4,211 nt of DNA, from the IMG/VR virus record IMGVR_UViG_2636416140_000003. The stretch is one strand, 5' to 3'. The notes under the pieces are model-generated. The model searched no databases, was not told the DNA's origin, and worked only from the letters and a program-made list of their open reading frames with translations. The position numbers and the translations under genes are program-made. The stretch is from a virus. Taxonomy: Duplodnaviria; Heunggongvirae; Uroviricota; Caudoviricetes. The number at the start of each line of letters is the position of its first letter. The first letter of the stretch is position 1. Of this stretch, positions 1-4,144 are shown one piece after another.

Positions 1-66
1 CATCATACACTAAATCAGTAAGTTGGCAGCATTACCCGGTTTCTGAACCCTGGATATGTTTATCTG

Positions 67-1679: not shown

Positions 1680-2015
1680 ATGAAGTGGATTGTGATTGAT
1701 ACAGTTATCCAGCCATCATGCGGAATATCTTTTTCAGTCATATGGAGTAAAATAAAATTAATAATCTGGTATCAATCGGATGCTTTCTTACCTCCTGAAA
1801 GTATATTTACACTGACTCACACAGGCATCATGCTCAATAACAAAGTGCTACCTGTAACCATTTACAACGTAGTACCATTCAATAAAACATTCTGGAATTT
1901 AATCAAAAACAGCCAGGAATGCCCTACAAATACAGATAACGTATTGAATGAATGCTTTAATAACCGTTGCACTCTGCAAATATGTCCTTATGGACTAAAA
2001 CAACAAAGTCCATAA
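1680..2015 (+). CDS. Hypothetical AT-rich cargo protein, 111 aa, five Cys (four in the C-terminal 30 residues); no recognisable family
   Basis: ATG at 1680 preceded by AAGGAA (1669-1674) with a 5-nt spacer. An uninterrupted 111-codon frame in such AT-rich sequence is unlikely by chance because stop codons are AT-rich. Contains 6 ATA codons (residues 16, 21, 25, 28, 42, 102), the codon read by the adjacent phage tRNA-Ile2. Confidence 0.45.
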
Positions 2016-2035: not shown

Positions 2036-2070
2036 AAAATCAATATAAACAGCCCCTCCGGAGAGGGGCT
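2036..2070 (-). terminator. Hairpin terminator, minus-strand orientation, possibly bidirectional, between the convergent cargo ORFs
   Basis: Plus strand 2051-2070 AGCCCCTC-cgga-GAGGGGCT forms an 8-bp GC-rich stem with a 4-nt loop. On the minus-strand RNA it is followed by GUUUAUAUUGAUUUU (U-rich); on the plus strand an A-rich tract precedes it but no U-tract follows. Confidence 0.45.
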
Positions 2071-2462
2071 GGAGAGTGGCGCTATGTGCCATTGCATGGT
2101 GCCGGGTGCCTCCCGGTGAATTCAGTACCAGCACCTGAATCCGCGATTATCCCATATACCTACTCGCTGATTGCCCCTCCGCACAGGGGGATTCACCATG
2201 CCAGTTTCTTTTAACAAACTCCCCGCAAACCAGACAACAGTCAACCGCCTGAATTGTGAAGTATTTAAAAATTTCTCCCGCTAACTGATACCCGGCTAAC
2301 AGTCTGGCGTTTTCTTTTTCAGCAACGGGAAAGCAACAACCACCACACCCGCCACCAGCACACCGTCAGCCGGCACTGACATTATCCGGCTGCTGCAATG
2401 CCATTCACAAAAACAGTAAGCAATCACTTTTTACCGTAACAGGTGATAATCCAGATATGTAT

Positions 2463-2816
2463 CTACCCCAGATGAGTAATCCGAAGTTCATCCATACCAC
2501 AGGTCCTGGCTATTCTGTTGTACTCCTGAACAAGAGCAAATAATTCTGAATTAGCAACCATGAACTCATCGCAAACCCTCTGTATAGCATCACTATTCAG
2601 AATAATAACGTCTCTTCCCGAAAGACGATCAGGAGTACAGAACAAAACTGTCAAACGGCTGAAGGCCTTTGCTCGTGCTGCATTGACTATATCAATACGC
2701 TGCCTAAGGATGAAACACCCCGACGCCTCATCAATATTCACTCTACCCACACCATATGAATGATAAATACTTAATGCTGAAAAAACCATTAGACCGTATA
2801 ACAAATACTCAATCAA
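2463..2816 (-). CDS. Hypothetical cargo protein, 117 aa from TTG at 2816 or 108 aa from ATG at 2789, with an N-terminal hydrophobic segment; no recognisable family
   Basis: Codon-by-codon reverse-complement translation confirms the frame, ending at TAG 2463-2465. The first start is TTG; the first ATG is at residue 10 (2787-2789). Contains 3 AGA, 3 AGG and 3 ATA codons (9 of 117), matching the two tRNAs immediately upstream. It lies directly downstream of Q, pR', tR' and the tRNAs, the slot that stx occupies in Stx phages. Confidence 0.5.
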   Translation of the reverse strand: MIEYLLYGLMVFSALSIYHSYGVGRVNIDEASGCFILRQRIDIVNAARAKAFSRLTVLFCTPDRLSGRDVIILNSDAIQRVCDEFMVANSELFALVQEYNRIARTCGMDELRITHLG

Positions 2817-2926
2817 TACTTAACAGAACTTTTATTTTTGACAAACATATAATATTTTCAACAATATCCTGAGCCAGGTATATTTCAGTATAAGGCTCTG
2901 CCGGAAGGAATCTGGAAGAATGAATA

Positions 2927-3003
2927 TGGCGCGCTGTACTGGATTCGAACCAGTGACCGATTGCTTAGAAGGCAATTGCTCTGTCCGGCTGAGCTAACAA
3001 CGC
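2927..3003 (-). tRNA. argN: tRNA-Arg, anticodon UCU (reads AGA/AGG), argN/argU-like, 77 nt with encoded CCA
   Basis: Reverse complement is GCGTTGTTAGCTCAGCCGGACAGAGCAATTGCCTTCTAAGCAATCGGTCACTGGTTCGAATCCAGTACAGCGCGCCA. It folds as a cloverleaf: acceptor GCGTTGT/ACAGCGC (one G.U), D-stem GCTC/GAGC, anticodon stem ATTGC/GCAAT with loop CTTCTAA (anticodon TCT), T-stem ACTGG/CCAGT with loop TTCGAAT, discriminator G, CCA. Confidence 0.85.
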
Positions 3004-3103
3004 TGAATACCGATAATGGACCGCCATCGGGGACCCGCCCCCGCACCAACAACCCTGTTATCGTGTCGTCTGCTCTTCCTGATAAGCTAATGGCGGTTTG
3101 TGA

Positions 3104-3179
3104 TGGTGGCCCTTGCTGGATTTGAACCAGCGACCTGGCGATTATGAGTCGCTCGCTCTCACCACTGAGCTAAAGGGCC
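3104..3179 (-). tRNA. ileZ: tRNA with CAU anticodon, most likely tRNA-Ile2 (lysidine-modified, reads AUA), ileX/ileZ-like, 76 nt with encoded CCA
   Basis: Reverse complement is GGCCCTTTAGCTCAGTGGTGAGAGCGAGCGACTCATAATCGCCAGGTCGCTGGTTCAAATCCAGCAAGGGCCACCA: acceptor GGCCCTT/AAGGGCC, anticodon loop CTCATAA (CAT), T-stem GCTGG/CCAGC. The framework closely resembles E. coli ileX as I recall it, and Stx phages carry ileZ-argN(-argO) at this position. The CAU anticodon alone cannot exclude tRNA-Met. Confidence 0.8.
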
Positions 3180-3214
3180 GGGAGCAGAATAATAACGGTC
3201 CGTAATTAATTTCG

Positions 3215-3242
3215 CAATAAAAAACCCGCTCAGCGGCGGGTT
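3215..3242 (-). terminator. Rho-independent terminator tR' downstream of the putative late promoter (Q-antiterminated terminator)
   Basis: Minus-strand RNA reads AACCCGC-cgcuga-GCGGGUU followed by UUUUAUUGCG: a GC-rich stem of 5 GC plus 2 AU pairs and a U-tract, about 65-70 nt downstream of the proposed start site. Confidence 0.7.
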
Positions 3243-3280
3243 GTAGAAACTCTTCTAACGTCAGGCATAAAACGCCCATC

Positions 3281-3317
3281 ATTATGACGAATTTACCACA
3301 GATTCCGGAAAAATCAA
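3281..3317 (-). promoter_or_regulatory. Candidate late promoter pR' (-35 TTGATT, 16-nt spacer, -10 TAAATT) with a -10-like CATAAT element in the initial transcribed region (candidate sigma-dependent pause / Q-loading site)
   Basis: On the minus strand, 5 nt after the Q stop codon: TTGATT (plus 3312-3317), 16-nt spacer, TAAATT (plus 3290-3295), then cgtCATAAT. Lambda pR' as I recall it also uses TAAATT as its -10. Placement immediately downstream of Q and upstream of tR' matches the lambdoid late operon. Confidence 0.5.
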
Positions 3318-3322
3318 CCTTG

Positions 3323-4144
3323 TTACCTAGTTACCTTTTTTAACTGCCGCTCAGCCCATGCTTCTTCAATATCAAACCGGGTCACCAGCGCATCATAAAA
3401 TTTCTTAACTGTTTTTTCCCATGACGCGCGTGTTATCTGGTTTGTCACCTCGCATATAGCATTAAATGCCTCCGTTGATGGTAGTCTTTCATAGCCACGA
3501 CCACCACAACGCTGGCAGTCTCTGATAACAGGCATACCACGTTTTACCGACTCTTCACGATGAATGGCGACACCACGCCCACGGCAATCCTTACAGGCGG
3601 TGGAAACCTCACCCTTTCCGCCACACTCCGGACAGGCAACTTTTACCACCTCCCTGACTTTTTTCCATTCTTCCCAGTAAGACGGATACACACCTTTCGT
3701 ACACTTTGCCCATACCGGCGGCTTACCATCCGGATACTGGATCTTATTTGTAAAAACTATGCTTTCAATAAATTTTTCCCCATAGCAACAAGGGCACTGC
3801 TTTTTACTCGCTGCGCTGCGGGCATAATCCTCAAAAGCGTACGAAGCCATAATGCGCATCACTACCGGTTTTATTTCTGCCGGAAGTTTTCTCAACGCCG
3901 CCACACGATCGCACCGACTGAGTGCATAATCTGCCAGTAATTCTGTTGCCCGCGCCCTGTCATTCATACTGATGCCCATTTTCCCCAGGAACGCAGAAAA
4001 ACCCATCTCAGCCCGATTCTGTGTCATGCCCTGCGCGGCCATCACATCAGTGATACTCAGCGCATCTTTTGACGTTGAGGCCGATGCATCGGTCAGGCCA
4101 GGGGATTTTGGGGAGTAGTATTTCGGTAAATCTTCCAGTTTCAT
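3323..4144 (-). CDS. Q: Late-gene antitermination protein Q, large (273 aa) Q82/QuuQ-like type, with a Cys-rich zinc-finger region
   Basis: ATG at 4142-4144, TAA at 3323-3325. The protein has a CPCC motif and three CxxCxGxG motifs (CPECGGKG, CKDCRGRG, CQRCGGRG) within residues 117-217. It sits immediately upstream of the pR'/tR'/tRNA/holin arrangement. Family assignment is from recollection of prophage Q proteins and gene context, not a search. Confidence 0.75.
   Translation of the reverse strand: MKLEDLPKYYSPKSPGLTDASASTSKDALSITDVMAAQGMTQNRAEMGFSAFLGKMGISMNDRARATELLADYALSRCDRVAALRKLPAEIKPVVMRIMASYAFEDYARSAASKKQCPCCYGEKFIESIVFTNKIQYPDGKPPVWAKCTKGVYPSYWEEWKKVREVVKVACPECGGKGEVSTACKDCRGRGVAIHREESVKRGMPVIRDCQRCGGRGYERLPSTEAFNAICEVTNQITRASWEKTVKKFYDALVTRFDIEEAWAERQLKKVTR

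Follow-up and report, generated by a model that had tools for sequence, protein, structure and literature searches.

The cassette and the small gene behind Q

We analysed a stretch of DNA of 4,211 nucleotides (nt), hereafter the window, from IMG/VR virus record IMGVR_UViG_2636416140_000003 (Caudoviricetes). The window is overall 98.5% identical to prophage regions of many E. coli chromosomes, and its part 2400-3330 is 99% identical to phage mEp460_ev081. Our subject is a minus-strand segment carrying two tRNA genes, ileZ and argO, and, downstream of them, a small open reading frame (ORF). The tRNA genes are located between the region of the antiterminator gene Q and the moron/lysis genes (Table 1); Q, a terminator, the tRNA genes, the small ORF and the DUF3927 and holin genes all lie on the minus strand. 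By sequence comparison, this segment is the standard ileZ-(argN)-argO cassette of lambdoid (Stx-type) E. coli prophages together with a small accessory ('moron') gene, here called ORF92. A sequence-only reading had described this 'cargo' ORF as loaded with the rare codons AGA, AGG and ATA, decoded by the adjacent tRNAs. We found that prophage accessory genes share this richness in rare codons with or without a tRNA cassette. The cassette is not favoured as a device matched to this cargo and is most likely generic.

The tRNA with anticodon CAU is identical at 76/76 positions to the annotated ileZ of the Stx2a phage F403 (AP012529) and at 68/76 to K-12 ileX, with differences mainly compensated in stems. 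It is labelled tRNA-Ile by PGAP and 'Met' by ARAGORN, the latter because only the anticodon is read. Its acceptor stem (GGCCC...GGGCC) retains the pairs C4-G69 and C5-G68, reportedly the TilS determinants separating tRNA-Ile2 from tRNA-Met, and its anticodon loop (CUCAUAA) is that of ileX. Hence this tRNA can be assigned to the AUA-reading tRNA-Ile2 type, and we infer that it reads AUA after lysidine modification. The second tRNA (anticodon UCU) is identical at 75 of 77 positions (97%) to argO of Stx2a F403, folds into a clean cloverleaf and carries the anticodon loop of K-12 argU; it is thus predicted to read AGA, and AGG less well. The cassette named in the sequence-only reading and the specificities given there to both tRNAs were in this way borne out. 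In the K-12 genome, the argU and ileX loci were both found. These two genes are single copies in K-12, where ileY also exists, and the host's own supply of these tRNAs is small.

The earlier description of two adjacent phage tRNAs was right in that both are intact and cognate to the codons in question, but the cassette has three slots and the third holds a decayed argN. By alignment, the 100-nt stretch between the two live tRNAs is an argN remnant and not a spacer: compared with the intact three-tRNA cassettes of E. coli AH19E004 and of a Stx2a phage, argN sequence is kept over the first 22 nt and over ~27 nt at the far end, with ~40 nt in the centre replaced. No tRNA was detected in this slot by ARAGORN, even with 70% thresholds, nor by Rfam at E<0.1. 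A weak hidden tRNA was likewise discarded, as ARAGORN at 85% and 70% thresholds returned spurious antisense calls only. An intact argN is present in two of the loci compared (L006 and L007), the first being a sister prophage that shares the Q, ORF92, DUF3927 and iraM genes and retains all three tRNAs. Within this prophage lineage the decayed argN is the usual form; two tRNAs only are likewise found in H1 and mEp460.

Homology to Stx2 phages extends from ~50 nt before ileZ to ~10 nt after argO. The ~50 nt before ileZ, which include both hexamers of a promoter-like site, are conserved with Stx2 prophages, and the sequence farther upstream is unrelated. These borders and the differing flanking genes indicate that the cassette is a self-contained module placed before varied cargoes. 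The conserved block suggests that it has its own, Q-independent promoter at this site.

The 117-codon ORF (2463-2816) considered in the sequence-only reading contains a real gene but is over-extended. In an alignment of 12 sequences (33-63% identity), homologues are 91-95 amino acids (aa) long and all begin at query residue 26, which corresponds to a GTG at 2741. This shared start defines a coding sequence of 92 codons holding 8 of the 9 rare codons, and leaves 2742-2816 as a mere upstream extension of the mechanical ORF. Full-length relatives were found in other E. coli prophages (56-63% identity) and in Citrobacter, Salmonella and E. coli plasmids (33-43%). Compared with the 56%-identical homologue of another E. 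coli prophage (L002), nucleotide identity was 65% with one codon indel, and differences were most numerous at third codon positions (35, 33 and 55 at positions 1, 2 and 3). The ratio of nonsynonymous to synonymous substitution rates (dN/dS) was 0.34 overall, with 0.70 in codons 1-32 and 0.25 in the part that starts at codon 33. Starts giving 117 aa (TTG) or 108 aa (ATG, used in the PHROG match) were rejected, as conservation sets in only at residue 26-27 and codons 1-32 have a higher dN/dS than the rest. A terminator-like hairpin within the ORF (2609-2627) is weak, with 3 GC pairs, and was taken as chance.

Since homologues keep frame and start and the sequence is under purifying selection, ORF92 is, as judged from these comparisons, a genuine protein-coding gene. 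It could instead be a chance open frame in an AT-rich spacer, whose 'codon usage' would then be meaningless. In favour of this view, PGAP shows no annotation at this place among the full-length RefSeq matches listed, RAST did not call it in mEp460_ev081, the non-ATG start is preceded by a weak GGTG/GGG purine stretch as Shine-Dalgarno sequence, and searches of Pfam, NCBIfam, PADLOC and PDB sequences with the 92-aa protein gave nothing above thresholds. This view is nevertheless highly improbable in the face of the homologues of uniform length and start in three bacterial groups, the dN/dS value with its excess of third-position changes, a PHROG match (phrog_2873, 'unknown function', E 2e-69) and a confident structural model described below. 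A variant 77% identical to ORF92 (P0012) is annotated by NCBI; its contig location was not found. About 22% of complete E. coli genomes thus carry a conserved gene for a 92-aa protein that is unannotated in the full-length RefSeq matches listed, probably owing to its GTG start and unusual codon usage. This omission of a conserved small gene from the RefSeq annotations examined is the only fresh item of the locus.

The AlphaFold model of the 92-aa protein, built on 12 sequences, has a predicted local distance difference test (pLDDT) score of 91 and consists of two long helices with a beta-hairpin between them. Foldseek returned no match at E<=0.001 in PDB or BFVD, the best (E 0.04) being coiled-coil/prefoldin-like. 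The prefoldin beta subunit shows the same helix/beta-hairpin/helix coiled-coil hairpin (TM-score ~0.7), with a sequence identity of 8-16% and a non-significant match. This modelled fold is too simple for inferring function or ancestry.

Members of the ORF92 family were observed near other tRNA cassettes. In a Salmonella prophage (L013, 3177-4288) a tRNA-Thr(UGU)/tRNA-Gly(UCC) cassette precedes the gene by 0.6-0.7 kb; in E. coli fimbrial (PapB/usher) Rep3 plasmid contigs (L010-L012, 3264-4276) the gene follows a decayed, 72%-identical copy of this Thr/Gly cassette; and in Citrobacter a member is found just downstream of a tRNA-Thr cassette. By gene order, the family and the tRNA block appear to travel together. 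A functional tie, with the prefoldin-like protein having tRNAs, tRNA processing or translation in induced prophages as its target, is distinctly improbable. Homologues located beside tRNA-Thr(UGU) or tRNA-Gly(UCC) have 0-2 of the corresponding ACA/GGA codons per gene, numbers too small to bear on an enrichment. In other E. coli prophages (L002, 164-889; L014, 3142-3870), an AraC/HTH_18 gene stands directly before the ORF92 homologue. This regulator has ~241 aa, 41% GC and 14 AGA/AGG/ATA codons, and the two genes may form a regulator-plus-small-protein pair.

Rare codons with and without the cassette

Recounting reproduced exactly all codon numbers and positions of the sequence-only reading. 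The 117-codon ORF contains AGA at codons 25, 68 and 101, AGG at 38, 80 and 104 and ATA at 43, 78 and 102; Q has 3 AGA, 3 AGG and 4 ATA (10 in 273 codons), and the plus-strand ORF at 1680-2015 has 6 ATA. The host reference was a set of 14,625 codons from 41 core genes annotated in the closest genome. Per 1000 codons, this set has 1.4 AGA, 1.0 AGG and 3.1 ATA, together 5.5, and these codons are thus rare in host core genes, as had been supposed. The small ORF reaches 77 per 1000 in its 117-codon version, a 14-fold enrichment over the host core (P = 2e-8), and 87 per 1000 in its 92-codon version (P = 5e-8).

The contrast with the host core largely reflects base composition. With its 41% GC, the ORF is expected to carry 5.3-6.0 such codons by its own composition and has 9, a number reached in 12.5% of shuffles (P = 0.125; with 92 codons, P = 0.089). 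Under the same null, Q carries fewer than predicted (10 observed, 14-18 predicted), as does the plus-strand ORF, an iraM homologue (6 observed, 7-9 predicted). As the composition null was not rejected and the last two genes fell below prediction, the signal is that host avoidance is absent, rather than a positive enrichment. Over 25 annotated genes, the prophage averages 28 per 1000. Individual genes reach 53-85 per 1000, with values of 65, 67 and 85 upstream of Q, and the opposite-strand genes ylcI, ybcV and iraM show 54-62; the large late structural genes of the prophage have only 12-29. Rare-codon positions were poorly conserved: only 1/9 is kept in the 56%-identical homologue.

We then compared regions with and without a cassette. 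An E. coli prophage (L014) that has the same Q type and an ORF92 homologue, with no tRNA between Q and holin, shows 38 per 1000 in this region, compared with 44 in the corresponding region here. The DLP12 region of K-12, which has no tRNA gene, reaches 43 per 1000, with appY at 96, ybcK at 75 and ybcM at 72, and Q plus stxAB of Stx2 phages give 51. Also, one ORF92 homologue has 54 per 1000 even though the 4 kb that precede it, between Q and the gene, contain no tRNA. Presence of the cassette was therefore not correlated with a higher AGA/AGG/ATA load in these comparisons (L014 and K-12 DLP12).

The sequence-only reading had linked the ORF to the tRNAs, and we considered this link as one of co-adaptation: the ORF would need the phage tRNAs, and its codon content would be shaped or tolerated by them. 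Several observations speak for it and hence weigh against a generic role. The gene is preceded, at a distance of 186 nt, by cognate tRNAs of the same orientation, and among 5426 complete E. coli genomes the ORF was found in 1185, joined to the tRNAs in 1147 of these (97%) as one block of >=95% identity. Given its amino acids and the codon usage of the prophage, 4.6 rare codons are expected in the ORF versus 9 observed, which is nominally high (P ~0.03, uncorrected for ~26 genes). The copy beside ileZ/argO is also the densest of its family (87 per 1000, versus 11-54 in five homologues elsewhere), a hint from n = 6 with differing amino-acid contents. Moreover, other prophages in the same genomes may provide such tRNAs in trans to the comparators scored as lacking the cassette. 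K-12 DLP12 is exempt from this caveat, its own region being free of tRNA genes; to our knowledge, K-12 is without such cassettes altogether. Co-adaptation nevertheless remains unlikely. The composition null stands, the rare codons are not kept in position, and both the homologue remote from any tRNA and the cassette-free prophage regions are comparably rich. The joint occurrence in 97% of genomes is expected from simple linkage in one nearly clonal prophage segment, and the cassette as such was found in 3061/5426 genomes, at up to 13 copies per genome, heading unrelated cargo in ~1900 genomes beyond those with the ORF.

Two further roles of the cassette were weighed. Phage tRNAs that evade tRNA-cleaving defences are documented in other phages, and ileZ and argO could thus mainly be spares replacing host tRNA-Arg and tRNA-Ile cut by anticodon nucleases or colicins. 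Circumstantially, phrog_1470 (DUF3927) and TerB-like neighbours bear labels of colicin/tellurite resistance types. However, both anticodon loops match those of the host tRNAs ileX and argU exactly and so show no sign of nuclease-escape changes. AUA, AGA/AGG and CGA, the last read by argN, are among the rarest codons of the host; specificities matching such codons fit compensation better, and argN was allowed to decay. Taken together, this makes a counter-defence role quite improbable. In the other scheme, rare codons would act as a timing gate, the cargo being translated only once Q read-through raises phage tRNA, so that the protein is confined to induced cells. The tRNAs are indeed placed behind a Q-controlled terminator, and the ORF has a cluster AGA-ATA-GCC-AGG at codons 101-104 (117-codon numbering). 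But the conserved promoter-like site between terminator and ileZ suggests Q-independent expression, argU and ileX genes are already present in the host, and neither the unconserved positions of the rare codons nor their number, which is at the composition-predicted level, is what such a gate would lead one to expect. We regard it as extremely improbable.

The generic role is accordingly our preferred interpretation and, in our judgement, a likely one: extra tRNA-Ile2 and tRNA-Arg(UCU) would ease translation of all AT-rich, poorly adapted genes of the prophage, ORF92 being one of many. The high AGA/AGG/ATA content of these genes is explained by AT-rich, horizontally moving DNA not avoiding these codons. 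The cassette, behind Q, the late promoter and the terminator, would be transcribed both by read-through that depends on Q and from the promoter-like site it carries, and ORF92, downstream of Q on the same strand, is readable by the late transcript. The cassette would then supply tRNA-Ile2(CAU) for AUA and tRNA-Arg(UCU) for AGA and weakly AGG. In this manner, prophage genes of poor codon adaptation would have three scarce tRNAs (taking the cassette as a unit) topped up, above all in the late, Q-driven phase of expression; expression of the tRNAs, their modification and a rate-limiting role are presumed in this scheme. The observation of the sequence-only reading was thus confirmed in part and its interpretation supported in part: that the phage supplies decoding capacity is plausible as general codon compensation, an idea already established, and a specific link to this cargo was not supported.

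Other features of the window

Table 1. Features of the analysed window, in order of decreasing coordinate
Feature	Position	Strand	Basis and remarks
Q antiterminator gene	3323..4144	-	273 aa; Pfam PF03589 Antiterm, E 6e-55
Candidate pR'-like late promoter (TTGATT, 16 nt, TAAATT)	3290..3317	-	Read directly from sequence
tR'-like intrinsic terminator	3223..3242	-	Terminator scan; 7-bp GC-rich stem then T run; between Q and tRNAs
Promoter-like site (TTGCGA, 17 nt, TATTAT)	3189..3217	-	Promoter scan; ends 9 nt before ileZ
ileZ, tRNA-Ile2 type, anticodon CAU	3104..3179	-	ARAGORN; Rfam tRNA 72.5 bits; CCA encoded
Decayed argN remnant (tRNA-Arg UCG)	3017..3096	-	Aligned to intact three-tRNA cassettes
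argO, tRNA-Arg, anticodon UCU	2927..3003	-	ARAGORN; Rfam tRNA 68 bits; CCA encoded
ORF92 ('cargo ORF'), coding sequence	2463..2741	-	92 aa, GTG start; 2 AGA, 3 AGG, 3 ATA
DUF3927 small protein gene	2296..2427	-	Pfam PF13064 E 6e-26; phrog_1470; PGAP; next gene after ORF92
STnc100 small RNA match	2041-2230	-	Rfam RF02076, 132 bits vs gathering score 47
iraM homologue (anti-adaptor family)	1680..2015	+	NCBIfam NF007393, 162 bits vs cutoff 121; PGAP 'anti-adapter protein IraM'
IS1 terminal 36 nt	1-36		35/36 identical to K-12 IS1A

In the closest genome, PGAP labels the Q gene 'antitermination protein'. The candidate late promoter downstream of Q scores 8/12, under the threshold of the promoter scan, and for this reason is absent from the scan output. 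We infer its pR'-like nature from its -10 hexamer, TAAATT, which we take to be that of lambda pR'. A weak Rfam match to Trp_leader (3216-3322) mirrors the same hairpin as the tR'-like terminator.

Downstream of the DUF3927 gene, the STnc100 element terminates in a 9-bp terminator hairpin. On the opposite strand PGAP places a pseudo 'hypothetical protein', and the same element is located downstream of the ORF92 homologue in L002. The plus-strand ORF with six ATA codons, which the sequence-only reading had also cited, turned out to be the iraM homologue, on the opposite strand and outside the late operon. It is full-length, with 35% GC, and lies within the Q-to-holin region of the prophage. Members of the iraM family are anti-adaptors blocking RssB-mediated RpoS turnover, here in a prophage-borne stress-regulation copy.

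Pfam also identified a DUF1737 gene, a P21-type holin gene and a YdfR/DUF1327 gene, all on the minus strand. The DUF1737 gene (1074-1435) is apparently broken into two abutting ORFs (1232-1435 and 1074-1235), and its PGAP equivalent consists of an incomplete pseudogene and a 53-aa hypothetical protein. At the low-coordinate end of the window, the endolysin gene of the closest genome begins 21 nt past position 37. With the IS1 end at positions 1-36 and the endolysin just beyond, IS1 separates holin and YdfR from endolysin; as read from this arrangement, the prophage is probably lysis-defective.

Comparison with known systems

The cassette resembles most closely that of Stx phages (933W, VT2-Sakai, Stx2a_F403), located upstream of stx: order, strand and the place behind the Q region, before moron/lysis genes, are the same, as is the ~50-nt block upstream of ileZ. 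In contrast to these phages, argN is dead here, the cargo consists of the 92-aa protein and DUF3927 instead of stxAB, Q is of a different type (273 aa, PF03589), and a terminator, not a methylase gene, is found directly upstream of the cassette. For the 933W genome it was reportedly proposed long ago that the tRNAs serve phage and virulence genes by reading AUA and AGA/AGG, codons rare in E. coli and common in such genes. Literature searches on ileZ/argN/argO and Stx rare codons yielded no usable primary paper. Both the cassette and the idea of compensation are textbook matter for Stx phages; what the present comparison adds is that richness in rare codons does not follow the presence of the cassette.

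The host minor tRNAs ileX/ileY and argU have the same anticodons and anticodon loops as the cassette tRNAs. The cassette tRNAs differ from them at 8/76 (Ile) and ~20/77 (Arg) positions, mostly by compensated stem changes, and, unlike the host genes, are prophage-borne and multiplied within genomes. Extra copies of these tRNAs are the classic laboratory remedy for expressing AGA/AGG/AUA-rich genes in E. coli.

Rare-codon counts in AT-rich prophage cargo should thus be judged against base composition and cassette-free prophages before a link to tRNAs is inferred. That phage tRNAs compensate for codon differences is an established idea, for which PMC7946995 cites Bailly-Bechet et al. 2007. In keeping with it, cognate codons here stand 5-fold (prophage) to 14-fold (this ORF) above the host core. 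The evidence for phage genes matched to their tRNAs has been judged equivocal (PMC2266997). Unlike in codon-compensating phages generally, the link is weak in lambdoid coliphages: they are poorly codon-adapted as a group, those with and without tRNA genes equally so, and the six with 2-3 tRNA genes were no different (P = 0.93; PMC4631060). Our matched comparisons, with the cassette-free prophage of the same Q type (L014) and with K-12 DLP12, agree with that result.

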